Source: Psammoneis japonica
Lineage: Eukaryota
Assembly: GCA_008632985.1 (NCBI GenBank)
Contig: QPGO01000045.1
Location: forward strand, 310,001-374,000
Direction of reading: 5' to 3'
Length of the DNA stretch: 64,000 nucleotides
Positions 24,256-48,072 of this stretch are shown in pieces. Both the position numbers and the translations under genes were made by a program. A model generated the notes under the pieces. The model was given only the letters and a program-made list of their open reading frames with translations, did not search any database and was not told the origin of the DNA. How positions within the stretch are numbered: position 1 is the stretch's first letter; every line of letters starts with the position of its first letter.

Positions 24256-24670
24256 CGTTTTACTATGAGCAGTACCTTTTGTTCGGTACGGTCGCTCCGC
24301 TACGTCATTTATCCCATTCAAGTATTGGCCAAGAGTTGCAAGCCTGTACCCGTCATGATTATGGGAGCTCTCATGGGAAAGAAATATCCTCTCAAGAAAT
24401 ATATCAATGTCGTCATGATTGTAGGTGGTGTGGTGCTCTTTATGGGAGGGTGAGTGTGTATAGTGTGGAACAAACAACTACCTATCATCGTGATGTCGTT
24501 GTTGTTGTAGCTGTTTTCTAACACTACCTGCTCTCGTTCTCGTTGCAACCATGTATGTACAGTATTCTACAGTGGTGTTTCCAAGTCGAGTAAAAAAAAG
24601 CAGTGCCGACGAAGATGTCGGTGGTGCATCATCTCAAATGTTTGGTATTCTACTCTTGTTTATCAGTCTC
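24256..24670 (+). pseudogene. Internal fragment of a UAA-family nucleotide-sugar (UDP-galactose) transporter, SLC35B1-like
   Basis: [25 protein letters not shown], then an intron (gtgagt 24450 ... ctacag 24572), then GILLLFISL, after which homology appears to stop. No N- or C-terminus is visible. Confidence 0.8.
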
Positions 24671-27600
24671 GACTATCCGTCGGATCGGTGTTGTCGATGT
24701 TATGGCTAACATGGTCGTATCTCTGTCGTCGACAAAGCCGGCAAGCTCCTGTTGAAGTAGTGGCGTTGCTGAAGGGCATGATTGAAGATGGGGAGCTGGC
24801 ACTACCGCATGGGCTCACCTGTGGTACGAAGCATCTACTTGATGCCGGATGGGCAGAAGCGGATTTTGAAGAAATGGCGGTTGCTTGTGCAATCTTTTTT
24901 GATGGTCTAGTGCAGCTTTTTTCATTTTCTTTGCAGTCTTTGGATCCTGTTGCTTTTTGGCTCGGCTAGGGTTTTGTGATGGTGCAAGATGAAATCTTGA
25001 ATCAGAATTCGGCAGATTCGTTCAGTGGGGCGTATTGACGTGCTGCTTTTTCAAATCAGGCAACGTAAAACTATCTGTTTGATTGTGGTGCTACCTTGCT
25101 GGCAGTCACTTTCTTTTTGCTGGCCGCCACCACTTCTACTGGAAGCAGAATATTCCGAATCATGTGACAGTCGCGTCAAGAGCATTCGGCGAGCGTTGCG
25201 TTGCGTTGCGAAGACCAAATGCTAAAAGAATCTAAGATTGGAGCCCGAAAACGAAAAGACACTGCTGACGCCGCCGGGGAGCAAAGAGCGCAACGACATA
25301 GCGTCTCGGGAGGAGCCGACGTGACCAATTGTTGCTACATCGACAAGTTCGTAAGGCTGGAGAGTCAATCACAACGGTTGCGTATCCAAGACTAGCAGTT
25401 GGGGAAAGCATGTGGCAGTTGCAAGTTCTGAAAGTCCTGCTCGACAAATTGCGTCTAATAGTGATAGTAGCAAGTCTCCAGCACGCGAAAAGAAGCGCAT
25501 CAAGCCAGAGGTTGTCTCATCCGGTAGAAAGGACACCACAATGACTGCATCTGCGATGTTGGCTGAAACTGAACACGGAATTTTCGACGGCGAGTCTGAT
25601 TTTGTCCTGACTCCACCCAATGGGAAGCGAATCGTTTCTGTTCACCCGGACTTAGCCAATCAAATGAAGGAGGTAACAACTTCGCATCGTATGCTGCACT
25701 ACTATCCTGACATTCTATTTTGCCTCACTCGAAAAGTGTTATAAATGTATCTCCCTCATTTCAGCATCAGAAAGATGTGATCAAATCCATGTGGGACAAC
25801 GTTTACTGTGACTTTTCTACGATGTCCGACGATGAAGCCTATGTGGCAAAGGTAGACGGCAATGAAACTTTGGTTTATTCCAACCAATCGCTTGGCGGAT
25901 GTATCCTTGCCAAGTGTGGGACTTGGCAAGTCGCTCCAAGCGATTGTGTTGCTTCATACCTTACTTCATCACCCTTCTTTGAATGTGTCGGGTATCCCTC
26001 TGTTTCGTACGGCGCTTCTCGTTGTCCCAACCAATACCGTACGTATCATACAATCCGGTCGGGTTCTTGCTTTGCTGTGTACGATCTCCGTTCTGACACG
26101 TTGTCTTATTCTTGATCTTGGCGCCACTAGTTGATAAACTGGGAGAGCGAATTCCGAAAGTGGGTAGCGTCTCTCCGGCCCGACACCAACACTTTTAATC
26201 TGAATGACGTAAACAGTTCTTCTCGGGGTAAAACGATCAAAGCTTGTAGCGACAGAGGTGGCGTTCTTCTTATGACTGTGCATGCGTCGTTTTGCTTCTC
26301 TCAAGAAGATCTCCAGGTTGATTTAATTTCTCTATTTGTGAGTAGTTGTTTCAATTACTCTGAAATAGAGAAATTCCCAGGAAGGGGTGAAATTGAATAA
26401 AAAAATTACGAGGAGTCCATGAGCCTTTCTCTGATTATAATCGATTTATTCTCTGCAACACAGCACAGAGCCCTGTCGCCTATCGAGCGCGTGATTTTTT
26501 GAGTTAGTGCTCAAATAAAAACAACAAACAATTGCGACTGCAGCGAAGCCGCAGCCGCTGATAGCTTTAGCGACAGACAAAGCCTGAGAATCCGGCTAGT
26601 GTCGAGCCCTTGCTGTGGTTGTCGTTGTCATCTTGCTGTCGCAAGAGAAAGATCCGAAGAGCATCCACGGATTCCTCGGAGCGGAGAGAAATTTCAAATT
26701 TCGCACCGCTGTTGGTCGTGCTTGCCTCATAGTTCCGTTGAGCAATTTTCATCACCATGGCGACATACTACTGCCTTCACATGAACCGGAAAGGGGAATT
26801 TACCTTTGACGATGATGTCCCCCCTCGTCCCTTGTTCAGGAACCCAGAGACCAGCGCCGTCTATCGCATCGACGACCTTGGAGGCGATGCCGTCTCTGTT
26901 GGTGATAACGGAGACCCTCACGCCGACGACGGTGTGCCCATTGCGCAACCGGAAGATCGCCTTCAAGCTTTTATGGACTATGGCGCGAGTAGCAGGGTAG
27001 ACCTTCAGGAGGCCCGGGCCACACTCATCCCAGAACCTGAATTACTAGCTTCCGGCTCCGATCCCAATCGGCTTGACAATGTCCTAGCCAGGGCCCGTGA
27101 AGGGGGGATTGTCTTTCGAAAGAAAACGAAGGAAATCCAGGCCTTGTTGAAGCTAATCTCATCGGATTCTACTGGCGCTACGAAATCACAAACGTCTTCT
27201 AAGAGAGGCCCCAAGCCTGGGAACAAAGCATTCCTAACAAACCATGGCTTGGAAAGAGTGTTCATTGCACGTAAGCAGCTGCGAGTTCGAAATGATGGCG
27301 AGAAGGCCAAGTACGGGGAGCTTGAAGAGAAGATTGTTTCCTATTGTCAAGGAGACTATGGCCAGGAGTCCAACGGCCTTTCAGGGCCACAAAAGATTCT
27401 CTACAAAGCTATGTTTCAGGAAGTGACAGGTCGGAACAGGGAAACGGGCATGCGAAAGCTACTTCCAGACCATTTATTGGTCATGGCGCAGTTGGCTTGC
27501 CAGCTTGACATGGATGCCAAGGAAGACAACCCCGACGCTTACCCAGTGTTTGCTCGGGACTTTGCGCGCTATTTGATCTTTGTAATCTTTGACCTTGGGG

Positions 27601-28471
27601 AACACAAAATCAGCAAACGGTATAGGACCCTTTGAAGGAAATGAACCTCCCACAACCCGAAGGAAACCCCAAGGACGATACATGGGCGACGAGGAGGTTT
27701 GCGATGTGCTCCTTTATTGGCGCCATCATTGACAAAGGGCCACTAATGCAACATGTTGTGGATATGGCTGTGGACAAAGCCATAGCTACTAGCCCCGCCA
27801 AACCCAACCGCGGTGGTGACTACCCTCCCGGTGTTCTGCCAAAGAATTTTCATCGGTGGCTAGAGAATTCTTATGCTGCAGATGATTTTGCTGGGCTACA
27901 AGGTACTCTTACTCCTATTATGGCTGAGGTTCACGAATTTACAACGATCCAAGTTCCCAGTGAGCGTCACGGTAGTGTTAGACTCACGCTAAAGCCTTGC
28001 GACGAGTTGCGAGTGAAAGATGGCGACAAGTACTACACAGCCCGCGAATCAGACAACCAATTCGTCACGGCGCATGAATCGGTGGAAGAGATCAACAACT
28101 TAGTGCCTTGTGGTGCCACGAACGGTCACGACAAGGACGTCCCGCTTCTCGCGGCTGCTTCGAGTGAAACAATCACAAGTGTCGAAGCCGAGGATACGAA
28201 AGCTACCGACGACGGCGACTCACAGTTCCTTCACAGCATCGAGGGACTTTTGGCACGCCGGCGTAACGGTGAGTTTGACGATCCCACACTGATGTGTCAG
28301 CTGCAGATGCTGTTGGAAGATGGTTGCACACCCAGCCACAAAGAGAACCGCGGCTTTGGTTCCGCCATCGATGGGCTCACAGTAACACCGAGAGGGTTCG
28401 AGCATTCTATTCTATATGCTGAAAAGCGAGCTGACTGCCCTAAGCAGGTGTCCAAGTATTTGCGAGATCAC
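24572..28471 (+). repeat. Large tandem unit 1 (3900 bp; one copy of the 581-bp segment at 25918-26498)
   Basis: Starts GTGGTGTTTCCAAGTCGAG, which recurs at 28472, 34696 and 40346. Confidence 0.95.
25541..26280 (+). pseudogene. ATRX/RAD54L2-like SNF2 ATPase N-terminal fragment (repeated in each unit)
   Basis: Spliced reading LANQMKE|HQKDVIKSMWDN...GGCILA/GLGKSLQ (motif I, frameshifted)...TALLVVPTNT|LINWESEFRKW...GGVLLM. Introns lie at about 25673-25764 and 26039-26130. The fragment ends before the DExH motif. Confidence 0.8.
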
Positions 28472-28609
28472 GTGGTGTTTCCAAGTCGAGTAAAAAAAAG
28501 CAGTGCCGACGAAGATGTCGGTGGTGCATCATCTCAAATGTTTGGTATTCTACTCTTGTTTATCAGTCTCGACTATCCGTCGGATCGGTGTTGTCGATGT
28601 TATGGCTAA
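26757..28609 (+). pseudogene. 5' part of the kinase gene, truncated before the kinase domain and fused to a transporter-derived tail (unit 1)
   Basis: Matches 44275-45989 and continues YLRDHV-VFPSRVKKSSADEDVGGASSQMFGILLLFISL. There is a 1-bp homopolymer frameshift near 27632. Confidence 0.75.
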
Positions 28610-31600
28610 CATGGTCGTATCTCTGTCGTCGACAAAGCCGGCAAGCTCCTGTTGAAGTAGTGGCGTTGCTGAAGGGCATGATTGAAGATGGGGAGCTGGC
28701 ACTACCGCATGGGCTCACCTGTGGTACGAAGCATCTACTTGATGCCGGATGGGCAGAAGCGGATTTTGAAGAAATGGCGGTTGCTTGTGCAATCTTTTTT
28801 GATGGTCTAGTGCAGCTTTTTTCATTTTCTTTGCAGTCTTTGGATCCTGTTGCTTTTTGGCTCGGCTAGGGTTTTGTGATGGTGCAAGATGAAATCTTGA
28901 ATCAGAATTCGGCAGATTCGTTCAGTGGGGCGTATTGACGTGCTGCTTTTTCAAATCAGGCAACGTAAAACTATCTGTTTGATTGTGGTGCTACCTTGCT
29001 GGCAGTCACTTTCTTTTTGCTGGCCGCCACCACTTCTACTGGAAGCAGAATATTCCGAATCATGTGACAGTCGCGTCAAGAGCATTCGGCGAGCGTTGCG
29101 TTGCGTTGCGAAGACCAAATGCTAAAAGAATCTAAGATTGGAGCCCGAAAACGAAAAGACACTGCTGACGCCGCCGGGGAGCAAAGAGCGCAACGACATA
29201 GCGTCTCGGGAGGAGTCCGACGTGACCAATTGTTGCTACATCGACAAGTTCGTAAGGCTGGAGAGTCAATCACAACGGTTGCGTATCCAAGACTAGCAGT
29301 TGGGGAAAGCATGTGGCAGTTGCAAGTTCTGAAAGTCCTGCTCGACAAATTGCGTCTAATAGTGATAGTAGCAAGTCTCCAGCACGCGAAAAGAAGCGCA
29401 TCAAGCCAGAGGTTGTCTCATCCGTAGAAAGGACACCACAATGACTGCATCTGCGATGTTGGCTGAAACTGAACACGGAATTTTCGACGGCGAGTCTGAT
29501 TTTGTCCTGACTCCACCCAATGGGAAGCGAATCGTTTCTGTTCACCCGGACTTAGCCAATCAAATGAAGGAGGTAACAACTTCGCATCGTATGCTGCACT
29601 GCTATCCTGACATTCTATTTTGCCTCACTCGAAAAGTGTTATAAATGTATCTCCCTCATTTCAGCATCAGAAAGATGTGATCAAATCCATGTGGGACAAC
29701 GTTTACTGTGACTTTTCTACGATGTCCGACGATGAAGCCTATGTGGCAAAGGTAGACGGCAATGAAACTTTGGTTTATTCCAACCAATCGCTTGGCGGAT
29801 GTATCCTTGCCAAGTGTGGGACTTGGCAAGTCGCTCCAAGCGATTGTGTTGCTTCATACCTTACTTCATCACCCTTCTTTGAATGTGTCGGGTATCCCTC
29901 TGTTTCGTACGGCGCTTCTCGTTGTCCCAACCAATACCGTACGTATCATACAATCCGGTCGGGTTCTTGCTTTGCAGTGTACGATCTCCGTTCTGACACG
30001 TTGTCTTATTCTTGATCTTGGCGCCACTAGTTGATAAACTGGGAGAGCGAATTCCGAAAGTGGGTAGCGTCTCTCCGGCCCGACACCAACACTTTTAATC
30101 TGAATGACGTAAACAGTTCTTCTCGGGGTAAAACGATCAAAGCTTGTAGCGACAGAGGTGGCGTTCTTCTTATGACTGTGCATGCGTCGTTTTGCTTCTC
30201 TCAAGAAGATCTCCAGGTTGATTTAATTTCTCTATTTGTGAGTAGTTGTTTCAATTACTCTGAAATAGAGAAATTCCCAGGAAGGGGTGAAATTGAATAA
30301 ATAAATTACGAGGAGTCCATGAGCCTTTCTCTGATTATAATCGATTTATTCTCTGCAACACAGCACAGAGCCCTGTCGCCTATCGAGCGCGTGATTTTGG
30401 GACTTGGCAAGTCGCTCCAAGCGATTGTGTTGCTTCATACCTTACTTCATCACCCTTCTTTGAATGTGTCGGGTATCCCTCTGTTTCGTACGGCGCTTCT
30501 CGTTGTCCCAACCAATGCCGCACGCATCATACAATCCGGTCGGGTTCTTGCTTTGCTGTGTACGATCTCCGTTCTGACACGTTGTCTTATTCTTGATCTT
30601 GGCGCCACCAGTTGATAAACTGGGAGAGCGAATTCCGAAAGTGGGTAGCGTCTCTCCGGCCCGACACCAACACTTTTAATCTGAATGACGCAAACAGTTC
30701 TTCTCGGGGTAAAACGATCAAAGCTTGTAGCGACAGAGGTGGCGTTCTTCTTGTGACTGTGCATGCGTCGTTTTGCTTCTCTCAAGAAGATCTCCAGGTT
30801 GATTTAATTTCTCTATTTGTGAGCAGTTGTTTCAATTACTCTGAAATAGAGAAATTCCCAGGAAGGGGTGAAATTGAACAAATAAATTGCGAGGAGTCCA
30901 TGAGCCTTTCTCTGATTGTAATCGATTTGTTCTCTGCAACACAGCACAGAGCCCTGTCGCCTGTCGAGCGCGTGATTTGGGACTTGGCAAGTCGCTCCAA
31001 GCGATTGTGTTGCTTCATACCTTGCTTCATCACCCTTCTTTGAATGTGTCGGGCATCCCTCTGTTTCGTACGGCGCTTCTCGTTGTCCCAACCAATGCCG
31101 CACGCATCACACAATCCGGTTGGGTTCTTGCTTTGCTGTGTGCGATCTCCGTTCTGACACGTTGTCTCATTCTTGATCTTGGCGCCACTGGTTGATAAAC
31201 TGGGAGAGCGAATTCCGAAAGTGGGTGGCGTCTCTCCGGCCCGACACCAACACTTTTAATCTGAATGACGTGAACAGTTCTTCTCGGGGTAAAACGATCA
31301 AAGCTTGTAGCGACAGAGGTGGCGTTCTTCTCATGACTGTGCATGCGTCGTTTTGCTTCTCTCAAGAAGATCTCCAGGTTGATTTAATTTCTCTGTTTGT
31401 GAGCAGTTGTTTCAATTGCCCTGAAATGGAGAAATCCCCAGGAAGGGGTGAAATTGAATGAACAAACCATGAGGAGTCCATGAGCCTTTCTCTGATTGTG
31501 ATCGATTTGTTCTCTGCAACACAGCACAGAGCCCTGTCGCCTGTCGAGCGCGTGATTTTGGGACTTGGCAAGTCGCTCCAAGCGATTGTGTTGCTTCACA

Positions 31601-34600
31601 CCTTACTTCATCACCCTTCTTTGAATGTGTCGGGCATCCCTCTGTTTCGCACGGCGCTTCTCGTTGTCCCAACCAATGCCGTGCGCATCATGCAATCCGG
31701 TCGGGTTCTTGCTTTGCTGTGTACGATCTCCGTTCTGACACGTTGTCTTGTTCTTGATCTTGGCGCCACCAGTTGATAAACTGGGAGAGCGAATTCCGAA
31801 AGTGGGCAGCGTCTCTCCGGCCCGACACCAACACTTTTAATCTGAATGACGCAAACAGTTCTTCTCGGGGTAAAACGATCAAAGCTTGTAGCGACAGAGG
31901 TGGCGTTCTTCTCACGACTGTGCATGCGTCATTTTGCTTCTCTCAAGAAGATCTCCAGGTTGATTTAATTTCTCTGTTTGTGAGCAGTTGTTTCAATTGC
32001 TCTGAAACAGAGAAATTCCCAGGAAGGGGTGAAATTGAACAAACAAACCACGAGGAGTCCATGAGCCTTTCTCTGATTACAATCGATTTGTTCTCTGCAA
32101 CACAGCACAGAGCCCTGTCGCCTGTCGAGCGCGTGATTTTGGGACTTGGCAAGTCGCTCCAAGCGATTGTGTTGCTTCACACCTTGCTTCATCACCCTTC
32201 TTTGAATGTGTCGGGTGTCCCTCTGTTTCGTACGGCGCTTCTCGTTGTCCCAACCAATGCCGCACGTATCATACAATCCGGTCGGGTTCTTGCTTTGCTG
32301 TGTACGATCTCCGTTCTGACACGTTGTCTTGTTCTTGATCTTGGCGCCACTGGTTGACAAGCTGGGAGAGCGAATTCCGAAAGTGGGCAGCGTCTCTCCG
32401 GCCCGACACCAACACTTTTAATCTGAATGACGCAAACAGTTCTTCTCGGGGTAAAACGATCAAAGCTTGTAGCGACAGAGGTGGCGTTCTTCTTATGACT
32501 GTGCATGCGTCGTTTTGCTTCTCTCAAGAAGATCTCCAGGTTGATTTAATTTCTCTATTTGTGAGTAGTTGTTTCAATTACTCTGAAATAGAGAAATTCC
32601 CAGGAAGGGGTGAAATTGAATAAATAAATTACGAGGAGTCCATGAGCCTTTCTCTGATTATAATCGATTTATTCTCTGCAACACAGCACAGAGCCCTGTC
32701 GCCTATCGAGCGCGTGATTTTTTGAGTTAGTGCTCAAATAAAAACAACAAACAATTGCGACTGCAGCGAAGCCGCAGCCGCTGATAGCTTTAGCGACAGA
32801 CAAAGCCTGAGAATCCGGCTAGTGTCGAGCCCTTGCTGTGGTTGTCGTTGTCATCTTGCTGTCGCAAGAGAAAGATCCGAAGAGCATCCACGGATTCCTC
32901 GGAGCGGAGAGAAATTTCAAATTTCGCACCGCTGTTGGTCGTGCTTGCCTCATAGTTCCGTTGAGCAATTTTCATCACCATGGCGACATACTACTGCCTT
33001 CACATGAACCGGAAAGGGGAATTTACCTTTGACGATGATGTCCCCCCTCGTCCCTTGTTCAGGAACCCAGAGACCAGCGCCGTCTATCGCATCGACGACC
33101 TTGGAGGCGATGCCGTCTCTGTTGGTGATAACGGAGACCCTCACGCCGACGACGGTGTGCCCATTGCGCAACCGGAAGATCGCCTTCAAGCTTTTATGGA
33201 CTATGGCGCGAGTAGCAGGGTAGACCTTCAGGAGGCCCGGGCCACACTCATCCCAGAACCTGAATTACTAGCTTCCGGCTCCGATCCCAATCGGCTTGAC
33301 AATGTCCTAGCCAGGGCCCGTGAAGGGGGGATTGTCTTTCGAAAGAAAACGAAGGAAATCCAGGCCTTGTTGAAGCTAATCTCATCGGATTCTACTGGCG
33401 CTACGAAATCACAAACGTCTTCTAAGAGAGGCCCCAAGCCTGGGAACAAAGCATTCCTAACAAACCATGGCTTGGAAAGAGTGTTCATTGCACGTAAGCA
33501 GCTGCGAGTTCGAAATGATGGCGAGAAGGCCAAGTACGGGGAGCTTGAAGAGAAGATTGTTTCCTATTGTCAAGGAGACTATGGCCAGGAGTCCAACGGC
33601 CTTTCAGGGCCACAAAAGATTCTCTACAAAGCTATGTTTCAGGAAGTGACAGGTCGGAACAGGGAAACGGGCATGCGAAAGCTACTTCCAGACCATTTAT
33701 TGGTCATGGCGCAGTTGGCTTGCCAGCTTGACATGGATGCCAAGGAAGACAACCCCGACGCTTACCCAGTGTTTGCTCGGGACTTTGCGCGCTATTTGAT
33801 CTTTGTAATCTTTGACCTTGGGGAACACAAAATCAGCAAACGGTATAGGACCCTTTTGAAGGAAATGAACCTCCCACAACCCGAAGGAAACCCCAAGGAC
33901 GATACATGGGCGACGAGGAGGTTTGCGATGTGCTCCTTTATTGGCGCCATCATTGACAAAGGGCCACTAATGCAACATGTTGTGGATATGGCTGTGGACA
34001 AAGCCATAGCTACTAGCCCGCCAAACCCAACCGCGGTGGTGACTACCCTCCCGGTGTTCTGCCAAAGAATTTTCATCGGTGGCTAGAGAATTCTTATGCT
34101 GCAGATGATTTTGCTGGGCTACAAGGTACTCTTACTCCTATTATGGCTGAGGTTCACGAATTTACAACGATCCAAGTTCCCAGTGAGCGTCACGGTAGTG
34201 TTAGACTCACGCTAAAGCCTTGCGACGAGTTGCGAGTGAAAGATGGCGACAAGTACTACACAGCCCGCGAATCAGACAACCAATTCGTCACGGGCGCATG
34301 AATCGGTGGAAGAGATCAACAACTTAGTGCCTTGTGGTGCCACGAACGGTCACGACAAGGACGTCCCGCTTCTCGCGGCTGCTTCGAGTGAAACAATCAC
34401 AAGTGTCGAAGCCGAGGATACGAAAGCTACCGACGACGGCGACTCACAGTTCCTTCACAGCATCGAGGGACTTTTGGCACGCCGGCGTAACGGTGAGTTT
34501 GACGATCCCACACTGATGTGTCAGCTGCAGATGCTGTTGGAAGATGGTTGCACACCCAGCCACAAAGAGAACCGCGGCTTTGGTTCCGCCATCGATGGGC

Positions 34601-34695
34601 TCACAGTAACACCGAGAGGGTTCGAGCATTCTATTCTATATGCTGAAAAGCGAGCTGACTGCCCTAAGCAGGTGTCCAAGTATTTGCGAGATCAC
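28472..34695 (+). repeat. Large tandem unit 2 (6224 bp = 3900 + 4x581)
   Basis: Near-identical to unit 1 apart from the internal array. Confidence 0.95.
29818..32721 (+). repeat. 581-bp tandem array, 5 copies
   Basis: GGGACTTGGCAAGTCGCTCC at 29818, 30399, 30979, 31560 and 32141. Confidence 0.95.
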
Positions 34696-34833
34696 GTGGT
34701 GTTTCCAAGTCGAGTAAAAAAAAGCAGTGCCGACGAAGATGTCGGTGGTGCATCATCTCAAATGTTTGGTATTCTACTCTTGTTTATCAGTCTCGACTAT
34801 CCGTCGGATCGGTGTTGTCGATGTTATGGCTAA
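32980..34833 (+). pseudogene. Truncated chimeric kinase 5' copy (unit 2)
   Basis: Same sequence as the other units, with 1-bp indels near 34020 and 34292. Confidence 0.75.
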
Positions 34834-37800
34834 CATGGTCGTATCTCTGTCGTCGACAAAGCCGGCAAGCTCCTGTTGAAGTAGTGGCGTTGCTGAAGGG
34901 CATGATTGAAGATGGGGAGCTGGCACTACCGCATGGGCTCACCTGTGGTACGAAGCATCTACTTGATGCCGGATGGGCAGAAGCGGATTTTGAAGAAATG
35001 GCGGTTGCTTGTGCAATCTTTTTTGATGGTCTAGTGCAGCTTTTTTCATTTTCTTTGCAGTCTTTGGATCCTGTTGCTTTTTTGGCTCGGCTAGGGTTTT
35101 GTGATGGTGCAAGATGAAATCTTGAATCAGAATTCGGCAGATTCGTTCAGTGGGGCGTATTGACGTGCTGCTTTTTCAAATCAGGCAACGTAAAACTATC
35201 TGTTTGATTGTGGTGCTACCTTGCTGGCAGTCACTTTCTTTTTGCTGGCCGCCACCACTTCTACTGGAAGCAGAATATTCCGAATCATGTGACAGTCGCG
35301 TCAAGAGCATTCGGCGAGCGTTGCGTTGCGTTGCGTTGCGAAGACCAAATGCTAAAAGAATCTAAGATTGGAGCCCGAAAACGAAAAGACACTGCTGACG
35401 CCGCCGGGGAGCAAAGAGCGCAACGACATAGCGTCTCGGGAGGAGTCCGACGTGACCAATTGTTGCTACATCGACAAGTTCGTAAGGCTGGAGAGTCAAT
35501 CACAACGGTTGCGTATCCAAGACTAGCAGTTGGGGAAAGCATGTGGCAGTTGCAAGTTCTGAAAGTCCTGCTCGACAAATTGCGTCTAATAGTGATAGTA
35601 GCAAGTCTCCAGCACGCGAAAAGAAGCGCATCAAGCCAGAGGTTGTCTCATCCGGTAGAAAGGACACCACAATGACTGCATCTGCGATGTTGGCTGAAAC
35701 TGAACACGGAATTTTCGACGGCGAGTCTGATTTTGTCCTGACTCCACCCAATGGGAAGCGAATCGTTTCTGTTCACCCGGACTTAGCCAATCAAATGAAG
35801 GAGGTAACAACTTCGCATCGTATGCTGCACTGCTATCCTGACATTCTATTTTGCCTCACTCGAAAAGTGTTATAAATGTATCTCCCTCATTTCAGCATCA
35901 GAAAGATGTGATCAAATCCATGTGGGACAACGTTTACTGTGACTTTTCTACGATGTCCGACGATGAAGCCTATGTGGCAAAGGTAGACGGCAATGAAACT
36001 TTGGTTTATTCCAACCAATCGCTTGGCGGATGTATCCTTGCCAAGTGTGGGACTTGGCAAGTCGCTCCAAGCGATTGTGTTGCTTCATACCTTACTTCAT
36101 CACCCTTCTTTGAATGTGTCGGGTATCCCTCTGTTTCGTACGGCGCTTCTCGTTGTCCCAACCAATACCGTACGTATCATACAATCCGGTCGGGTTCTTG
36201 CTTTGCTGTGTACGATCTCCGTTCTGACACGTTGTCTTATTCTTGATCTTGGCGCCACTAGTTGATAAACTGGGAGAGCGAATTCCGAAAGTGGGTAGCG
36301 TCTCTCCGGCCCGACACCAACACTTTTAATCTGAATGACGTAAACAGTTCTTCTCGGGGTAAAACGATCAAAGCTTGTAGCGACAGAGGTGGCGTTCTTC
36401 TTATGACTGTGCATGCGTCGTTTTGCTTCTCTCAAGAAGATCTCCAGGTTGATTTAATTTCTCTATTTGTGAGTAGTTGTTTCAATTACTCTGAAATAGA
36501 GAAATTCCCAGGAAGGGGTGAAATTGAATAAATAAATTACGAGGAGTCCATGAGCCTTTCTCTGATTATAATCGATTTATTCTCTGCAACACAGCACAGA
36601 GCCCTGTCGCCTATCGAGCGCGTGATTTTGGGACTTGGCAAGTCGCTCCAAGCGATTGTGTTGCTTCATACCTTACTTCATCACCCTTCTTTGAATGTGT
36701 CGGGTGTCCCTCTGTTTCGTACGGCGCTTCTCGTTGTCCCAACCAATGCCGTGCGCATCGTGCAATCCGGTCGGGTTCTTGCTTTGCTGTGTGCGATCTC
36801 CGTTCTGACACGTTGTCTTGTTCTTGATCTTGGCGCCACCAGTTGATAAACTGGGAGAGCGAATTCCGAAAGTGGGTAGCGTCTCTCCGGCCCGACACCA
36901 ACACTTTTAATCTGAATGACGCAAACAGTTCTTCTCGGGGTAAAACGATCAAAGCTTGTAGCGACAGAGGTGGCGTTCTTCTTGTGACTGTGCATGCGTC
37001 GTTTTGCTTCTCTCAAGAAGATCTCCAGGTTGATTTAATTTCTCTGTTTGTGAGCAGTTGTTTCAATTACCCTGAAATAGAGAAATCCCCAGGAAGGGGT
37101 GAAATTGAGTGAACAAATTGCGAGGAGTCCATGAGCCTTTCTCTGATTGTAGTCGATTTGTTCTCTGCAACACAGCACAGAGCCCTGTCGCCTGTCGAGC
37201 GCGTGATTTTGGGACTTGGCAAGTCGCTCCAAGCGATTGTGTTGCTTCGTGCCTCACTTCATCACCCTTCTTTGAATGTGTCGGGTGTCCCTCTGTTTCG
37301 CACGGCGCTTCTCGTTGTCCCAACCAATGCCGCACGCATCATACAATCCGGTCGGGTTCTTGCTTTGCTGTGTGCGATCTCCGTTCTGACACGTTGTCTT
37401 GTTCTTGATCTTGGCGCCACTAGTTGACAAACTGGGAGAGCGAATTCCGAAAGTGGGCAGCGTCTCTCCGGCCCGACACCAACACTTTTAATCTGAATGA
37501 CGCAAACAGTTCTTCTCGGGGTAAAACGATCAAAGCTTGTAGCGACAGAGGTGGCGTTCTTCTTATGACTGTGCATGCGTCGTTTTGCTTCTCTCAAGAA
37601 GATCTCCAGGTTGATTTAATTTCTCCATTTGTGAGTGGTTGTTTCAACCACCCTGAAATAGAGAAATTCCCAGGAAGGGGTGAAATTGAACAAATAAATT
37701 ACGAGGAGTCCATGAGCCTTTCTCTGATTGTGGTCGATTTGTTCTCTGCAACACAGCACAGAGCCCTGTCGCCCATCGAGCGCGTGATTTTGGGACTTGG

Positions 37801-40345
37801 CAAGTCGCTCCAAGCGATTGTGTTGCTTCACACCTTGCTTCATCACCCTTCTTTGAATGTGTCGGGTGTCCCTCTGTTTCGCACGGCGCTTCTCGTTGTC
37901 CCAACCAATGCCGCACGCATCACACAATCCGGTCGGGTTCTTGCTTTGCTGTGTGCGATCTCCGTTCTGACACGTTGTCTTGTTCTTGATCTTGGCGCCA
38001 CCAGTTGATAAACTGGGAGAGCGAATTCCGAAAGTGGGCAGCGTCTCTCCGGCCCGACACCAACACTTTTAATCTGAATGACGTAAACAGTTCTTCTCGG
38101 GGTAAAACGATCAAAGCTTGTAGCGACAGAGGTGGCGTTCTTCTTATGACTGTGCATGCGTCGTTTTGCTTCTCTCAAGAAGATCTCCAGGTTGATTTAA
38201 TTTCTCTATTTGTGAGTAGTTGTTTCAATTACTCTGAAATAGAGAAATTCCCAGGAAGGGGTGAAATTGAATAAATAAATTACGAGGAGTCCATGAGCCT
38301 TTCTCTGATTATAATCGATTTATTCTCTGCAACACAGCACAGAGCCCTGTCGCCTATCGAGCGCGTGATTTTTTGAGTTAGTGCTCAAATAAAAACAACA
38401 AACAATTGCGACTGCAGCGAAGCCGCAGCCGCTGATAGCTTTAGCGACAGACAAAGCCTGAGAATCCGGCTAGTGTCGAGCCCTTGCTGTGGTTGTCGTT
38501 GTCATCTTGCTGTCGCAAGAGAAAGATCCGAAGAGCATCCACGGATTCCTCGGAGCGGAGAGAAATTTCAAATTTCGCACCGCTGTTGGTCGTGCTTGCC
38601 TCATAGTTCCGTTGAGCAATTTTCATCACCATGGCGACATACTACTGCCTTCACATGAACCGGAAAGGGGAATTTACCTTTGACGATGATGTCCCCCCTC
38701 GTCCCTTGTTCAGGAACCAGAGACCAGCGCCGTCTATCGCATCGACGACCTTGGAGGCGATGCCGTCTCTGTTGGTGATAACGGAGACCCTCACGCCGAC
38801 GACGGTGTGCCCATTGCGCAACCGGAAGATCGCCTTCAAGCTTTTATGGACTATGGCGCGAGTAGCAGGGTAGACCTTCAGGAGGCCCGGGCCACACTCA
38901 TCCCAGAACCTGAATTACTAGCTTCCGGCTCCGATCCCAATCGGCTTGACAATGTCCTAGCCAGGGCCCGTGAAGGGGGGATTGTCTTTCGAAAGAAAAC
39001 GAAGGAAATCCAGGCCTTGTTGAAGCTAATCTCATCGGATTCTACTGGCGCTACGAAATCACAAACGTCTTCTAAGAGAGGCCCCAAGCCTGGGAACAAA
39101 GCATTCCTAACAAACCATGGCTTGGAAAGAGTGTTCATTGCACGTAAGCAGCTGCGAGTTCGAAATGATGGCGAGAAGGCCAAGTACGGGGAGCTTGAAG
39201 AGAAGATTGTTTCCTATTGTCAAGGAGACTATGGCCAGGAGTCCAACGGCCTTTCAGGGCCACAAAAGATTCTCTACAAAGCTATGTTTCAGGAAGTGAC
39301 AGGTCGGAACAGGGAAACGGGCATGCGAAAGCTACTTCCAGACCATTTATTGGTCATGGCGCAGTTGGCTTGCCAGCTTGACATGGATGCCAAGGAAGAC
39401 AACCCCGACGCTTACCCAGTGTTTGCTCGGGACTTTGCGCGCTATTTGATCTTTGTAATCTTTGACCTTGGGGAACACAAAATCAGCAAACGGTATAGGA
39501 CCCTTTTGAAGGAAATGAACCTCCCACAACCCGAAGGAAACCCCAAGGACGATACATGGGCGACGCGGAGGTTTGCGATGTGCTCCTTTATTGGCGCCAT
39601 CATTGACAAAGGGCCACTAATGCAACATGTTGTGGATATGGCTGTGGACAAAGCCATAGCTACTAGCCCCGCCAAACCCAACCGCGGTGGTGACTACCCT
39701 CCCGGTGTTCTGCCAAAGAATTTTCATCGGTGGCTAGAGAATTCTTATGCTGCAGATGATTTTGCTGGGCTACAAGGTACTCTTACTCCTATTATGGCTG
39801 AGGTTCACGAATTTACAACGATCCAAGTTCCCAGTGAGCGTCACGGTAGTGTTAGACTCACGCTAAAGCCTTGCGACGAGTTGCGAGTGAAAGATGGCGA
39901 CAAGTACTACACAGCCCGCGAATCAGACAACCAATTCGTCACGGCGCATGAATCGGTGGAAGAGATCAACAACTTAGTGCCTTGTGGTGCCACGAACGGT
40001 CACGACAAGGACGTCCCGCTTCTCGCGGCTGCTTCGAGTGAAACAATCACAAGTGTCGAAGCCGAGGATACGAAAGCTACCGACGACGGCGACTCACAGT
40101 TCCTTCACAGCATCGAGGGACTTTTGGCACGCAGGCGTAACGGTGAGTTTGACGATCCCACACTGATGTGTCAGCTGCAGATGCTGTTGGAAGATGGTTG
40201 CACACCCAGCCACAAAGAGAACCGCGGCTTTGGTTCCGCCATCGATGGGCTCACAGTAACACCGAGAGGGTTCGAGCATTCTATTCTATATGCTGAAAAG
40301 CGAGCTGACTGCCCTAAGCAGGTGTCCAAGTATTTGCGAGATCAC
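34696..40345 (+). repeat. Large tandem unit 3 (5650 bp)
   Basis: Near-identical repeat carrying a 4-copy internal array. Confidence 0.95.
36049..38372 (+). repeat. 581-bp tandem array, 4 copies
   Basis: Monomers start at 36049, 36630, 37211 and 37792. Confidence 0.95.
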
Positions 40346-40483
40346 GTGGTGTTTCCAAGTCGAGTAAAAAAAAGCAGTGCCGACGAAGATGTCGGTGGTG
40401 CATCATCTCAAATGTTTGGTATTCTACTCTTGTTTATCAGTCTCGACTATCCGTCGGATCGGTGTTGTCGATGTTATGGCTAA
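38631..40483 (+). pseudogene. Truncated chimeric kinase 5' copy (unit 3)
   Basis: ORF 38807-40483 is open for 558 aa. A 1-bp deletion near 38717 separates it from the ATG at 38631. Confidence 0.75.
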
Positions 40484-43400
40484 CATGGTCGTATCTCTGT
40501 CGTCGACAAAGCCGGCAAGCTCCTGTTGAAGTAGTGGCGTTGCTGAAGGGCATGATTGAAGATGGGGAGCTGGCACTACCGCATGGGCTCACCTGTGGTA
40601 CGAAGCATCTACTTGATGCCGGATGGGCAGAAGCGGATTTTGAAGAAATGGCGGTTGCTTGTGCAATCTTTTTTGATGGTCTAGTGCAGCTTTTTTCATT
40701 TTCTTTGCAGTCTTTGGATCCTGTTGCTTTTTGGCTCGGCTAGGGTTTTGTGATGGTGCAAGATGAAATCTTGAATCAGAATTCGGCAGATTCGTTCAGT
40801 GGGGCGTATTGACGTGCTGCTTTTTCAAATCAGGCAACGTAAAACTATCTGTTTGATTGTGGTGCTACCTTGCTGGCAGTCACTTTCTTTTTGCTGGCCG
40901 CCACCACTTCTACTGGAAGCAGAATATTCCGAATCATGTGACAGTCGCGTCAAGAGCATTCGGCGAGCGTTGCGTTGCGTTGCGAAGACCAAATGCTAAA
41001 AGAATCTAAGATTGGAGCCCGAAAACGAAAAGACACTGCTGACGCCGCCGGGGAGCAAAGAGCGCAACGACATAGCGTCTCGGGAGGAGTCCGACGTGAC
41101 CAATTGTTGCTACATCGACAAGTTCGTAAGGCTGGAGAGTCAATCACAACGGTTGCGTATCCAAGACTAGCAGTTGGGGAAAGCATGTGGCAGTTGCAAG
41201 TTCTGAAAGTCCTGCTCGACAAATTGCGTCTAATAGTGATAGTAGCAAGTCTCCAGCACGCGAAAAGAAGCGCATCAAGCCAGAGGTTGTCTCATCCGGT
41301 AGAAAGGACACCACAATGACTGCATCTGCGATGTTGGCTGAAACTGAACACGGAATTTTCGACGGCGAGTCTGATTTTGTCCTGACTCCACCCAATGGGA
41401 AGCGAATCGTTTCTGTTCACCCGGACTTAGCCAATCAAATGAAGGAGGTAACAACTTCGCATCGTATGCTGCACTGCTATCCTGACATTCTATTTTGCCT
41501 CACTCGAAAAGTGTTATAAATGTATCTCCCTCATTTCAGCATCAGAAAGATGTGATCAAATCCATGTGGGACAACGTTTACTGTGACTTTTCTACGATGT
41601 CCGACGATGAAGCCTATGTGGCAAAGGTAGACGGCAATGAAACTTTGGTTTATTCCAACCAATCGCTTGGCGGATGTATCCTTGCCAAGTGTGGGACTTG
41701 GCAAGTCGCTCCAAGCGATTGTGTTGCTTCATACCTTACTTCATCACCCTTCTTTGAATGTGTCGGGTATCCCTCTGTTTCGTACGGCGCTTCTCGTTGT
41801 CCCAACCAATACCGTACGTATCATACAATCCGGTCGGGTTCTTGCTTTGCTGTGTACGATCTCCGTTCTGACACGTTGTCTTATTCTTGATCTTGGCGCC
41901 ACTAGTTGATAAACTGGGAGAGCGAATTCCGAAAGTGGGTAGCGTCTCTCCGGCCCGACACCAACACTTTTAATCTGAATGACGTAAACAGTTCTTCTCG
42001 GGGTAAAACGATCAAAGCTTGTAGCGACAGAGGTGGCGTTCTTCTTATGACTGTGCATGCGTCGTTTTGCTTCTCTCAAGAAGATCTCCAGGTTGATTTA
42101 ATTTCTCTATTTGTGAGTAGTTGTTTCAATTACTCTGAAATAGAGAAATTCCCAGGAAGGGGTGAAATTGAATAAATAAATTACGAGGAGTCCATGAGCC
42201 TTTCTCTGATTATAATCGATTTATTCTCTGCAACACAGCACAGAGCCCTGTCGCCTATCGAGCGCGTGATTTTGGGACTTGGCAAGTCGCTCCAAGCGAT
42301 TGTGTTGCTTCATACCTTACTTCATCACCCTTCTTTGAATGTGTCGGGTATCCCTCTGTTTCGCACGGCGCTTCTCGTTGTCCCAACCAATGCCGCACGC
42401 ATCACACAATCTGGTCGGGTTCTTGCTTTGCTGTGTGCGATCTCCGTTCTGACACGTTGTCTTATTCTTGATCTTGGCGCCACCAGTTGATAAACTGGGA
42501 GAGCGAATTCCGAAAGTGGGCAGCGTCTCTCCGGCCCGACACCAACACTTTTAATCTGAATGACGCAAACAGTTCTTCTCGGGGTAAAACGATCAAAGCT
42601 TGTAGCGACAGAGGTGGCGTTCTTCTTATGACTGTGCATGCGTCGTTTTGCTTCTCTCAAGAAGATCTCCAGGTTGATTTAATTTCTCTGTTTGTGAGCA
42701 GTTGTTTCAATTACCCTGAAACAGAGAAATCCCCAGGAAGGGGTGAAATTGAACAAATAAATTGCGAGGAGTCCATGAGCCTTTCTCTGATTACAATCGA
42801 TTTGTTCTCTGCAACACAGCACAGAGCCCTGTCGCCCATCGAGCGCATGATTTTGGGACTTGGCAAGTCGCTCCAAGCGATTGTGTTGCTTCATGCCTTG
42901 CTTCATCACCCTTCTTTGAATGTGTCGGGTGTCCCTCTGTTTCGTGCGGCGCTTCTCGTTGTCCCAACCAATGCCGCACGCATCGTGCAATCCGGTCGGG
43001 TTCTTGCTTTGCTGTGTGCGATCTCCGTTCTGACACGTTGTCTTGTTCTTGATCTTGGCGCCACCAGTTGACAAACTGGGAGAGCGAATTCCGAAAGTGG
43101 GTGGCGTCTCTCCGGCCCGACACCAACACTTTTAATCTGAATGACGCAAACAGTTCTTCTCGGGGTAAAACGATCAAAGCTTGTAGCGACAGAGGTGGCG
43201 TTCTTCTTATGACTGTGCATGCGTCGTTTTGCTTCTCTCAAGAAGATCTCCAGGTTGATTTAATTTCTCTGTTTGTGAGCAGTTGTTTCAATTACTCTGA
43301 AACAGAGAAATTCCCAGGAAGGGGTGAAATTGAACAAATAAATTACGAGGAGTCCATGAGCCTTTCTCTGATTATAATCGATTTGTTCTCTGCAACACAG

Positions 43401-45989
43401 CACAGAGCCCTGTCGCCTGTCGAGCGCGTGATTTTGGGACTTGGCAAGTCGCTCCAAGCGATTGTGTTGCTTCACACCTTGCTTCATCACCCTTCTTTGA
43501 ATGTGTCGGGTGTCCCTCTGTTTCGCACGGCGCTTCTCGTTGTCCCAACCAATGCCGCACGTATCACACAATCCGGTCGGGTTCTTGCTTTGCTGTGTGC
43601 GATCTCCGTTCTGACACGTTGTCTTGTTCTTGATCTTGGCGCCACCAGTTGACAAACTGGGAGAGCGAATTCCGAAAGTGGGCAGCGTCTCTCCGGCCCG
43701 ACACCAACACTTTTAATCTGAATGACGTAAACAGTTCTTCTCGGGGTAAAACGATCAAAGCTTGTAGCGACAGAGGTGGCGTTCTTCTTATGACTGTGCA
43801 TGCGTCGTTTTGCTTCTCTCAAGAAGATCTCCAGGTTGATTTAATTTCTCTATTTGTGAGTAGTTGTTTCAATTACTCTGAAATAGAGAAATTCCCAGGA
43901 AGGGGTGAAATTGAATAAATAAATTACGAGGAGTCCATGAGCCTTTCTCTGATTATAATCGATTTATTCTCTGCAACACAGCACAGAGCCCTGTCGCCTA
44001 TCGAGCGCGTGATTTTTTGAGTTAGTGCTCAAATAAAAACAACAAACAATTGCGACTGCAGCGAAGCCGCAGCCGCTGATAGCTTTAGCGACAGACAAAG
44101 CCTGAGAATCCGGCTAGTGTCGAGCCCTTGCTGTGGTTGTCGTTGTCATCTTGCTGTCGCAAGAGAAAGATCCGAAGAGCATCCACGGATTCCTCGGAGC
44201 GGAGAGAAATTTCAAATTTCGCACCGCTGTTGGTCGTGCTTGCCTCATAGTTCCGTTGAGCAATTTTCATCACCATGGCGACATACTACTGCCTTCACAT
44301 GAACCGGAAAGGGGAATTTACCTTTGACGATGATGTCCCCCCTCGTCCCTTGTTCAGGAACCCAGAGACCAGCGCCGTCTATCGCATCGACGACCTTGGA
44401 GGCGATGCCGTCTCTGTTGGTGATAACGGAGACCCTCACGCCGACGACGGTGTGCCCATTGCGCAACCGGAAGATCGCCTTCAAGCTTTTATGGACTATG
44501 GCGCGAGTAGCAGGGTAGACCTTCAGGAGGCCCGGGCCACACTCATCCCAGAACCTGAATTACTAGCTTCCGGCTCCGATCCCAATCGGCTTGACAATGT
44601 CCTAGCCAGGGCCCGTGAAGGGGGGATTGTCTTTCGAAAGAAAACGAAGGAAATCCAGGCCTTGTTGAAGCTAATCTCATCGGATTCTACTGGCGCTACG
44701 AAATCACAAACGTCTTCTAAGAGAGGCCCCAAGCCTGGGAACAAAGCATTCCTAACAAACCATGGCTTGGAAAGAGTGTTCATTGCACGTAAGCAGCTGC
44801 GAGTTCGAAATGATGGCGAGAAGGCCAAGTACGGGGAGCTTGAAGAGAAGATTGTTTCCTATTGTCAAGGAGACTATGGCCAGGAGTCCAACGGCCTTTC
44901 AGGGCCACAAAAGATTCTCTACAAAGCTATGTTTCAGGAAGTGACAGGTCGGAACAGGGAAACGGGCATGCGAAAGCTACTTCCAGACCATTTATTGGTC
45001 ATGGCGCAGTTGGCTTGCCAGCTTGACATGGATGCCAAGGAAGACAACCCCGACGCTTACCCAGTGTTTGCTCGGGACTTTGCGCGCTATTTGATCTTTG
45101 TAATCTTTGACCTTGGGGAACACAAAATCAGCAAACGGTATAGGACCCTTTTGAAGGAAATGAACCTCCCACAACCCGAAGGAAACCCCAAGGACGATAC
45201 ATGGGCGACGAGGAGGTTTGCGATGTGCTCCTTTATTGGCGCCATCATTGACAAAGGGCCACTAATGCAACATGTTGTGGATATGGCTGTGGACAAAGCC
45301 ATAGCTACTAGCCCCGCCAAACCCAACCGCGGTGGTGACTACCCTCCCGGTGTTCTGCCAAAGAATTTTCATCGGTGGCTAGAGAATTCTTATGCTGCAG
45401 ATGATTTTGCTGGGCTACAAGGTACTCTTACTCCTATTATGGCTGAGGTTCACGAATTTACAACGATCCAAGTTCCCAGTGAGCGTCACGGTAGTGTTAG
45501 ACTCACGCTAAAGCCTTGCGACGAGTTGCGAGTGAAAGATGGCGACAAGTACTACACAGCCCGCGAATCAGACAACCAATTCGTCACGGCGCATGAATCG
45601 GTGGAAGAGATCAACAACTTAGTGCTGTGGTGCACGAACGGTCACGACAAGGACGTCCCGCTTCTCGCGGCTGCTTCGAGTGAAACAATACAAGTGTCGA
45701 AGCCGAGGATACGAAAGCTACCGACGACGGCGACTCACAGTTCCTTCACAGCATCGAGGGACTTTTGGCACGCCGGCGTAACGGTGAGTTTGACGATCCC
45801 ACACTGATGTGTCAGCTGCAGATGCTGTTGGAAGATGGTTGCACACCCAGCCACAAAGAGAACCGCGGCTTTGGTTCCGCCATCGATGGGCTCACAGTAA
45901 CACCGAGAGGGTTCGAGCATTCTATTCTATATGCTGAAAAGCGAGCTGACTGCCCTAAGCAGGTGTCCAAGTATTTGCGAGATCACGTG
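40346..45989 (+). repeat. Large tandem unit 4 (about 5640 bp), running into the unique 3' part of the kinase
   Basis: Ends GATCACGTG|ATTCCTCTG instead of GATCACGTG|GTGTTTCC. Confidence 0.95.
41693..44016 (+). repeat. 581-bp tandem array, 4 copies
   Basis: Monomers start at 41693, 42274, 42855 and 43436. Confidence 0.95.
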
Positions 45990-47155: not shown

Positions 47156-47269
47156 AACTAGCGATAAGCGTAAAGGACCTCCGTAAAACTAGTGACAGTG
47201 AAAACACTTGTGCTACAGTCGTACAGTGATAAGCAGATCTGCCATCGCTGTCGCGCCATCGTCTAAGAT

Positions 47270-48040: not shown

Positions 48041-48072
<32 letters not shown>

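Follow-up and report, generated by a model that had tools for sequence, protein, structure and literature searches.

What decides whether a stretch of DNA is mutated: its content, its number of copies or its position? This question is raised by a nested tandem repeat in Psammoneis japonica, located at positions 24572-45989 of a 64,000-nt stretch of contig QPGO01000045.1 (assembly GCA_008632985.1, positions 310,001 to 374,000). The whole stretch is referred to as the window, and all positions below count from its first letter. The repeat acts as a natural experiment, in which identical DNA is spared or converted by position alone. In the interiors of three young arrays of a 581-bp monomer, TpA dinucleotides are changed to CpA or TpG, and this conversion is about three-quarters complete; in multi-kb domains of the same window it is near completion. 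The targeting is independent of copy number. Such a pattern is probably the product of a locally targeted hypermutation, A:T to G:C at TpA, which acts in cis and would be tied to a local silent state of the DNA.

Architecture of the Nested Repeat

Comparison of the window with itself resolves four tandem units on the forward strand, each composed of a ~3.3-kb backbone and a nested array of 581-bp monomers. The number of monomers is one in unit 1 (U1), five in unit 2 (U2), four in unit 3 (U3), and four in unit 4 (U4). The boundaries of U1 (24572-28471, the 3.9-kb form with a single monomer), U2 (28472-34695), U3 (34696-40345), and U4 (40346-45989) were drawn from the self-comparison together with the backbone alignment. 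The one monomer of U1 lies at 25917-26497 and is unmutated. The arrays of the remaining units, also on the forward strand, occupy 29817-32721 in U2 (5 x 581 bp, with monomers starting at 29817, 30398, 30978, 31559, and 32140), 36048-38371 in U3 (4 x 581 bp; 36048, 36629, 37210, and 37791), and 41692-44015 in U4 (4 x 581 bp; 41692, 42273, 42854, and 43435). An exact 24-base word of the monomer gave no match in the metagenome contigs searched.

A preceding description of the window, made from its letters and called here the sequence-only reading, had reported four near-identical tandem units, and these are confirmed, the BLAST identity among the backbone segments being 99.3-99.8%. When the backbones are aligned column by column, single-base substitutions are found only at 25701, 27692, and 28259. 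The other differences are a small complex change at 28107-28116 (in U4), a 5-bp insertion (in U3), and single-base homopolymer indels. Each backbone copy carries 113-114 TA sites, and just one of them varies among the four copies. This site, 25701, reads TA in U1 and TG in U2, U3, and U4 (29601, 35832, and 41476), and it is the sole backbone difference that fits the signature described below. The sequence-only reading had seen a change of this kind, which does exist, but had placed it at ~25697. The site is located 216 bp upstream of the array, within a 92-nt stretch (25671-25762) that is skipped in certain contigs and is considered with the coding content of the unit. The same reading called the backbone TA-rich. 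Relative to the neighbourhood this is right, as the observed/expected ratio of TA is 0.54-0.55 in the backbone and 0.70 in the first monomer versus 0.00-0.10 in the adjacent TA-free domains; in absolute terms it is not.

The Substitution Signature at TpA

The four first monomers supplied a reference consensus, against which the 10 non-first monomers show 189 substitutions. TpA takes up 60 of the 581 positions and receives 166 of these changes (binomial p = 4e-136), divided between the strands as 84 T>C and 82 A>G. Changes of the type A>G or T>C account for 184 of the 189 in total, and the remaining 5 are CpG transitions, a class that reaches 5/330 in the inner monomers versus 0/776 in the backbone (p = 0.002). 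The A:T>G:C changes outside TpA number 18 of the 189, and more than half of these (10/18) adjoin a TpA, as CATA>CGTG or TAAT; such changes look like bystander edits.

An alternative count takes the single monomer of U1 as the reference and follows its 29 TA sites through the 10 monomers. The resulting 290 states consist of 127 TA, 82 TG, 81 CA, and 0 CG, and 25 of the 29 sites are changed at least once. One and the same site reads CA in some monomers and TG in others, and CG in none. The alternation between CA and TG, together with the complete lack of CG, identifies TA as the ancestral state and means that each site received one hit, on either strand. A modified base misread by the sequencer was also considered and rejected, since it would yield mixed calls and some CG, yet CG is 0/290.

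The outcome depends on the base located 3′ of the edited A. Counted per strand of each TA site, the conversion rates are 77/166 for TAC, 60/127 for TAT, 16/65 for TAG, and 12/134 for TAA; two TTTAAT sites were never converted (0/17 copies at risk, a term defined below). Neighbouring sites show no strand coordination, as adjacent converted sites are of like type in 81 of 163 cases versus 83.4 ± 4.2 under a null in which the strand labels are shuffled within sites. Such independence suggests site-by-site action on duplex DNA, which fits the data better than the editing of long single-stranded tracts. It argues against R-loops, resection, stretches of break-induced replication, or copying from one edited RNA.

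Converted Tracts and Spared Margins

Within each array the conversion is confined to a tract, which is measured here from the first to the last converted TA. The tract of U2 (30517-32433) begins 700 bp after the array start and stops 288 bp before the array end, that of U3 (36706-38039) begins after 658 bp and stops 332 bp before the end, and that of U4 (42364-43683) begins after 672 bp and likewise stops 332 bp before the end. In monomer coordinates, the onset is at column 119 (U2), 77 (U3), and 92 (U4) of the second monomer, and the end is at column 294 (U2), 249 (U3), and 249 (U4) of the last monomer. The edges are reproducible in the three units and leave an unmutated 5′ margin of ~630-700 bp and a 3′ margin of ~230-330 bp. 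None of the tracts includes any part of a first monomer, and the first monomers match the single monomer of U1 apart from two transversions, one private to U2 and the other to U1. The sequence-only reading had described the 581-bp segment as untouched where it is single. This holds for U1, but the first copy of every array and the final ~230-330 bp of each last copy are untouched as well.

For the purpose of this analysis, a TA site-copy is defined as at risk when it lies inside a tract, with four never-hit sites left out. In the array interiors, 166 of 215 at-risk site-copies (77%) are converted. Taken over all TA sites, conversion amounts to 166/300 in the inner monomers versus 3/456 in the backbone copies (Fisher p = 3e-78). 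It had been proposed in the sequence-only reading that copy number alone is not the trigger, and the data agree with this, since the backbone, itself present in four copies, varies at 1 of ~114 TA sites, against 166/215 in the interiors. Because the first monomers and U1 are spared despite their identical sequence, the action is in cis, and a diffusible homology guide (for instance a small RNA) does not suffice. Neither copy number nor sequence origin is a sufficient trigger either.

Two further causes of the sparing were examined and rejected. The first is selection: the non-coding DNA of the normal domains retains TA, and the SNF2-like reading frame carried by the monomer is already broken. 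The second is age alone, by which old DNA would be TA-free and young DNA not; it fails for the array, where the converted monomers are nested in, and derived from, the spared unit.

Timing of the Conversion

The monomers of the different units carry two kinds of record. The last monomers are clearly alike by descent, judging from the changes they share. Those of U3 and U4 agree in 11 changes, conflict in none, and differ in 2; the last monomer of U2 has 7-8 changes in common with them and 1 conflict. Between units, internal monomers are 15-36 nt apart in pairwise comparison, with 0-10 CA-versus-TG conflicts per pair, and those at equivalent positions are no closer to each other than those at non-equivalent ones. 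Descent from an already mutated ancestor cannot produce a CA-versus-TG conflict, and the internal monomers were therefore converted independently. In a maximum-likelihood tree of all 14 monomers, the internal ones are star-like with long private branches, and the sole supported clade is the group of first monomers (94/99).

By this comparison, a part of the conversion (last monomer, columns 41-294) appears to predate the unit duplications. Most of the conversion of the internal monomers appears to be later than these duplications, the backbones having meanwhile stayed nearly unchanged (~0.1% different). The statement of the sequence-only reading that equivalent monomers differ between units is therefore valid for the internal monomers and not for the last ones, whose changes are mostly shared by position. 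Its conclusion that much of the mutation post-dates the large duplication stands.

TA-Free Domains around the Array

By its dinucleotide profile the window is a mosaic, and ~42% of it belongs to sharply bounded TA-free domains, located at ~1-3319, 7340-23573, 47267-51923, and 59268-62097. They contain 0-6 TA per kb, and their observed/expected ratios are 0.00-0.10 for TA, 1.4-2.5 for CA and TG, and 0.05-0.8 for CpG. In 1-kb bins the domains form runs of 3 to 16 kb, with edges sharply defined at a scale of tens of bp. The TA-normal remainder, including the whole array and ~1 kb on each side of it, has ratios of 0.4-1.0 for TA and ~1.0 for CpG. The array thus lies between two such domains. The left one (7340-23573) contains relics of a glycerol kinase gene and of a class C receptor gene as well as an inverted paralogue of a part of the unit, and the right one (47267-51923) has a CpG ratio of 0.05-0.43.

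The TA sites that survive in the domains carry the context rule of the monomers. There are 73 TAs in 26.9 kb of TA-free DNA versus 738 in 14.6 kb of normal non-array DNA, a density of ~5% of that in normal DNA. Among the 73 survivors, 44 are YTAR (TTAG, TTAA, CTAG, CTAA), 24 are CTAC, GTAG, TTAC, or GTAA, and 5 are others; ATAT, GTAC, ATAC, and GTAT are absent, though common in normal DNA. This matches the preference seen in the monomers (TAC, TAT >> TAG > TAA) and indicates that the same process has acted in the array and in the domains. Since the domains share the process, it is not specific to tandem repeats. From the agreement in sequence context, the array interiors would be a young, partly converted target of the process that cleared the domains.

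The open reading frames (ORFs) of the TA-free DNA contain 7 tyrosines in 10,983 residues (0.06%) versus 188 in 7,605 (2.47%) in normal DNA, and they are still open. A Pfam scan of 50 of the 56 TA-free ORFs of at least 130 aa returned no viral or transposon domain; of the six ORFs outside that scan, two had been scanned earlier and four are microsatellite-derived. Old repeats in other parts of the window differ in the ordinary way, with many CpG transitions, as seen in 10 pairs chosen from 145 BLAST rows.

The domains are not uniform in CpG. The observed/expected ratio is 0.05-0.46 at 8001-14000 and 48001-52000 versus 0.5-0.8 at 14001-23000. If CpG decay follows silencing, the TA-free domains would have been converted at different times. 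Two further features were observed at domain boundaries. The region 57001-59000, which abuts a TA-free domain, is AT-rich (40-44% G+C) and has the highest TA ratio of the window (~0.9-1.0). Where the domain to the right of the array begins, a (TGG)n microsatellite and derived 27- to 30-bp repeats are located at 47950-48148, with long ORFs of low complexity on both strands.

Gene Relics and the Direction of Change

The named protein matches of the window are diatom proteins, and its genes have long, intron-poor ORFs. An example of a gene within a TA-free domain is a glycerol kinase ORF of 619 aa (17013-18872, minus strand; Pfam E = 5e-51), 58% identical to a protein of Odontella aurita. The ORF has no tyrosine in the alignment, and the 7 tyrosines of the Odontella homologue face Cys (x4), His (x2), and Asp (x1), as counted by eye. 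From its sequence, such a tyrosine-free glycerol kinase is probably a dead gene, although annotation would list it as intact. Within the domain, a 5′ segment of the gene occurs as a tandem duplicate (18047-18670 and 18979-19596, 83.5% identical), and 14 CA-versus-TG conflicts between the duplicates show that both were converted independently after the duplication.

The second example is an ORF at 550-1779 (plus strand), a tyrosine-poor relic from a family of hypothetical proteins with relatives in Cyclotella atomus and Skeletonema marinoi and no Pfam domain. It has 0 tyrosines at the 9 columns where the relatives keep this residue, which are occupied by Cys (3), His (3), Leu, Met, and Trp. Columns of other residues are kept at 7/13 for Phe, 4/5 for Trp, 12/17 for Leu, and 7/13 for Lys. 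The metagenome loci that encode relatives of this ORF are TA-normal in 35 of 35 cases (TA observed/expected 0.48-0.92). The loss of the tyrosine columns, taken together with the TA-normal relatives, gives the direction of change as TpA to CpA/TpG, independently of the monomer data. One cluster of the family has 20 members, so that the family may be part of a mobile element.

A third example is an older, inverted partial copy of the unit part 24921-25673, located at 22214-23573 (minus strand) within the left TA-free domain. In this paralogue, 10 of 12 TA sites of the unit read CA or TG. In the four pieces counted, the TA-to-CA/TG asymmetry between the paralogue and the units is 8:0, and the partner units are unmutated.

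Such relics carry a warning for annotation. The process creates no stop codons and removes TAA and TAG, so dead, tyrosine-free genes will be called real.

Reliability of the Assembly

Contigs of a sequencing run denoted X1 contain 0.82 of the sampled words of the stretch 17000-26900, two-thirds of which is TA-free. They also cover the inner monomers, for which no differing letters are listed. The contigs of a second run, X2, are without cover on the inner-monomer bins, which says nothing on the expression of the inner monomers. Contig depth is 139-172 on the backbone, 60.7 on one 134-nt flank contig, and 4-50 on the inner-monomer bins.

In the contigs of two public runs a T is inserted after 27630, which would fuse the ORFs 26742-27635 and 27626-28609 into the 597-aa form that is intact in U3. 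This insertion contradicts the assembly and makes the indels of this assembly unreliable; no such sign exists for the substitutions. Consensus error as the origin of the signature is in turn excluded by the sequence pattern itself: the changes are restricted to TpA, are balanced between the two strands, and never yield CG, and unique DNA obeys the same rule. Where the array begins on its left side (24539-24671), X1 and X2 contigs diverge into letters that are absent from the window, and these divergent ends imply that another allele or paralogue of this edge exists. Even if the units were misjoined alleles, the nested contrast inside each unit would hold.

Relation to Known Systems

Mettrop et al. 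(10.64898/2026.01.13.699255) described a comparable process in mutation-accumulation lines of Bigelowiella natans. According to this preprint, 231 of the 302 nuclear mutations fell in two virus-derived regions, with A>G and T>C making up 230 of these 231; all GC-biased changes among them were on TpA. The rate was ~6e-7 per site per generation in the regions versus 3.5e-10 elsewhere. The main target was single-copy and transcriptionally silent, and the genome contained 124 clusters of TpA-poor, CpA+TpG-rich windows. An ADAT2-like deaminase was proposed as the agent, and DNA-editing ADAT2 enzymes were cited. A literature search on TpA-specific DNA hypermutation returned nothing beyond this preprint.

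The two processes share three properties. First, almost all changes are A>G or T>C and lie on TpA, the strand deciding between TpG and CpA (184/189 and 166/189 here). Second, they occur in discrete regions beside normal DNA, where TpA loss and CpA+TpG gain mark clusters of kb-sized windows. Third, the predicted genes of such regions are nearly TpA-free. They differ in the host, which is a chlorarachniophyte in one case and a diatom-like stramenopile in the other, and in completeness, as the TA observed/expected ratio of the nucleocytoplasmic large DNA virus insert of B. natans is 0.45 and that of the domains here 0.00-0.10, far lower. The rate in B. natans was measured in lines, whereas the process described here is known from sequence alone. 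The preprint text makes no mention of a +1 base preference, bystander edits, tandem repeats, or unmutated margins, all of which are seen here.

Judged by sequence, the signature is of the same kind as in B. natans, here apparently extended to a diatom-like genome and to host-derived DNA. A second lineage would show that TpA hypermutation is no curiosity of one species. The preference TAC, TAT >> TAG > TAA, the bystander edits, and the lack of strand runs together form a fingerprint for an enzyme search, which is also of interest for base editing.

Repeat-induced point mutation (RIP) of Neurospora and other fungi changes C:G to T:A, mostly CpA to TpA, and so creates TpA. It hits both copies of duplications above a few hundred bp, and to our knowledge it occurs in fungi only. 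The likeness consists in dinucleotide-specific transitions, sharp edges, genes killed at unchanged length, and compositionally distinct isochores. The direction is reversed here, from TpA to CpA/TpG, as established by the CA/TG alternatives and the outgroups. Unlike in RIP, the four-copy backbone, the four first monomers, and the partners of the inverted paralogue are spared.

Enzymes of the TadA and ADAT2-ADAT3 type have as their natural substrate an A preceded by U (U33-A34), the anticodon loop recognised by bacterial TadA being UACG, and they naturally act on RNA loops or single strands. TAC and TACG are among the best-converted sites here; TAT is converted too, and the absence of strand runs suggests duplex DNA. 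Hyper-editing by ADAR changes A to G with a 5′ U and 3′ G preference in double-stranded RNA, in clusters and often on repeats, and ADARs are, as far as we know, regarded as animal enzymes. The clustering of A>G and the 5′ U/T preference are common to both, whereas the process here affects genomic DNA, on both strands at neighbouring sites (81/163 alike), with a nearly absolute 5′ T and a 3′ C or T. Very-short-patch repair of Escherichia coli turns TA within a short word into CA or TG and depletes CTAG genome-wide, slowly and at the site of one methylase. It shares the change of TA to CA/TG but is bacterial and genome-wide, neither bound to domains nor saturating.

A Probable Locally Targeted Hypermutation and Its Alternatives

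In the mechanism proposed for the hypermutation, silencing or heterochromatin would nucleate within the interior of a short-period array. The expressed flanks would hold the silent state back and so leave the margins unmutated. Within the silent DNA, adenine would be deaminated in duplex 5′-TA-3′, with TAY preferred. Oxidation of thymine in (R)TA is an equally fitting chemistry, because TA is its own complement and sequence alone cannot separate adenine from thymine chemistry. The difference between the CpG ratio of the domains (0.05-0.8) and that of the half-converted monomers (~1) suggests that TA loss is quick and is followed by slow CpG decay. Among the triggers raised in the sequence-only reading, lack of transcription is possible. 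A dependence on repeat period or local copy density is unproven and is weakened by the TA-free domains, which hold genes that are single-copy within the window, and by the first monomer of each array, which escapes though it is as repeated as the others.

The tempo can be estimated from the rates reported for B. natans in the available preprint text. As a rough guide, they correspond to ~1e-5 per TA site per generation, which would convert 77% of the sites in ~1e5 generations. Over the same time, the changes expected from the background in each 3.3-kb backbone copy would number far fewer than one. Borrowed rates of this size reproduce the contrast between array and backbone and favour the earlier view that the process is fast relative to background mutation.

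A wider reading is put forward tentatively, as one that has somewhat less than an even chance of being right in all its parts. In this reading, which relies in part on the preprint, TpA-directed hypermutation would be a silencing system found across distant algal lineages and triggered by a local silent state. The silent state would arise de novo in short-period arrays, and neither foreignness nor copy number would be a trigger. Sites in duplex DNA would be edited one at a time, preferably in the TAY context and with bystander edits, and the editing would halt a few hundred bp before active flanks. Genes would be disabled for good through the loss of Tyr codons, TAA/TAG, TATA-like and AATAAA-like signals, and splice sites, their frames staying open. 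If this reading is true, some natural enzyme would have to edit adenine (or thymine) within double-stranded DNA.

Several points weigh against a trigger by the local silent state. The data come throughout from one locus in one assembly. The whole first monomer and ~80-120 bp of the second are spared and the 3′ margin is shorter, which a simple chromatin model does not predict and which could point to a polar, homology-based rule. The domain edge at 23573 coincides with the end of a homology block at 23582, as a RIP-like trigger would give. The CpG depletion that accompanies TA loss across the domains and the CpG transitions of the inner monomers (5/330 versus 0/776) hint at silencing, and do so indirectly. 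In B. natans the targets described in the accessible text are viral or foreign, and here they are host-like, namely SNF2-like and kinase-gene fragments and gene relics. Finally, X1 may be the data behind the assembly or its polishing, in which case its agreement is not independent, and the contig depth leaves the copy number unfixed, with room for a heterozygous number of units.

The alternative that survives best, although doubtful, is a RIP-like short-range homology trigger, which gives the repeat-period idea of the sequence-only reading a concrete form and by which only the downstream partner of a copy located a few hundred bp upstream would be mutated, and partners at 3.9-6.2 kb would be out of range. 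Such a rule fits the three arrays when the partner lies 581 bp upstream and the shared sequence extends at least ~80-120 bp 5′ and at least ~230-330 bp 3′ of the site. It leaves the backbone spared, whose partners are 3.9-6.2 kb away, and it agrees both with the one domain edge that ends with a homology block (23573/23582) and with the duplicated glycerol kinase segment, whose 14 conflicts place the conversion of both copies after the duplication. The TA-free domains of 2.8-16 kb speak against it, as they carry genes without a second copy in the window, and so do the unmutated units that are the partners of the inverted paralogue (8:0 asymmetry; 10/12 sites). A one-sided, downstream-only rule is without a known mechanism. 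In the available text on B. natans, moreover, the main target is single-copy (10.64898/2026.01.13.699255).

A second alternative, which has little probability, explains the pattern by history: the internal monomers were mutated elsewhere, for instance in a long 581-bp array of a TA-free domain, and arrived by ectopic recombination, or the arrays were hit in full and unmutated units then restored the first monomer and the tail by gene conversion. Tandem arrays and units are prone to unequal exchange, and the loose contig ends show that further copies or alleles of unit parts exist outside the window. The import would be needed three times, however, with the same unmutated margins each time, and gene conversion has no reason always to restore TA. 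The internal monomers are ~77% converted, whereas the TA-free domains retain ~5% of the normal TA density, and the frame broken at 25917 makes selection for an intact first monomer unlikely.

Still less probable is mutagenic synthesis, in which the tract is newly made DNA, added as new monomers through slippage or the repair of breaks, either by an error-prone polymerase or through long deaminated single-stranded intermediates. It would explain the clean template (the first monomer), the clean backbone, and the private changes of each internal monomer, and polymerase eta prefers A>G at WA motifs. Conversion of ~77% of the susceptible sites far exceeds polymerase error rates, though, single-stranded intermediates should leave runs of one type, which are not seen (81/163 versus 83.4), and the same preference is present in 27 kb of TA-free domains outside the array. 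An artefact, either misassembled alleles or consensus and polishing errors in the repeat, draws on the single-base indel error after 27630, on depth ratios that are not a clean 4:1, and on the hints that the left edge has another allele or paralogue, and it is just as improbable, because errors would not place 166/189 changes on TpA with even strands, zero CG, and the TAY rule of 27 kb of unique DNA, the contigs of a separate run cover the inner monomers with no differing letters listed, and misjoined alleles would leave the contrast within each unit intact.

Coding Content of the Unit and Neighbouring Genes

The X2 contigs skip two 92-nt GT..AG stretches of the forward strand. The first, at 25671-25762, is most simply an intron. 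The second lies inside the first monomer of U4 (41814-41905; the U1 equivalent is 26039-26130). The simplest reading is that X2 represents spliced RNA; the kind of this run is not on record, the run search listed no RNA run that contains the sequence, and a processed DNA copy is the alternative. The monomer encodes motifs (GLGKS..., NWESEFRKW) that were recognised by eye and that we take to be SNF2-like; the short SNF2-like ORF pieces gave no Pfam hit at E <= 0.01. These motifs join in frame across the second skip. Where the array starts on the left, at 25917, both the DNA and the X2 contig show a break in this frame. By its sequence, the SNF2-like part looks like a pseudogene fragment.

Outside the array, the class C receptor relic in the left TA-free domain consists of the ORFs 20675-21613 and 19622-20455 (minus strand); the copy in the window matches 7tm_3, and its homologues carry ANF_receptor and 7tm_3. 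Repeats of a mitochondrial carrier are located at 58994-59525 (minus strand), at an edge between TA-free and normal DNA (59135/59268). They were identified by Pfam except for the final piece, an 82-aa ORF (58994-59239) read as the end of a carrier repeat, which had no Pfam hit. In our reading, unconfirmed by Pfam in this last piece, the carrier gene would run across the domain edge.

The backbone carries an orphan ORF of 597 aa, intact in U3 (38690-40483, plus strand) and split in U1, U2, and U4 of the assembly by single-base indels. Searches with the 597-aa form, longer and shorter forms not being searched, returned no Pfam family, no usable Atlas hit, and no homologue of near length. The orphan ORF of U4 extends past the end of the unit at 45989 and enters the protein-kinase part of a gene (45990-47155, plus strand) in TA-normal DNA, the whole ORF spanning 45684-47155. 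This continuation into the kinase gene places the duplication breakpoints inside a gene, of which U1, U2, and U3 carry truncated copies.

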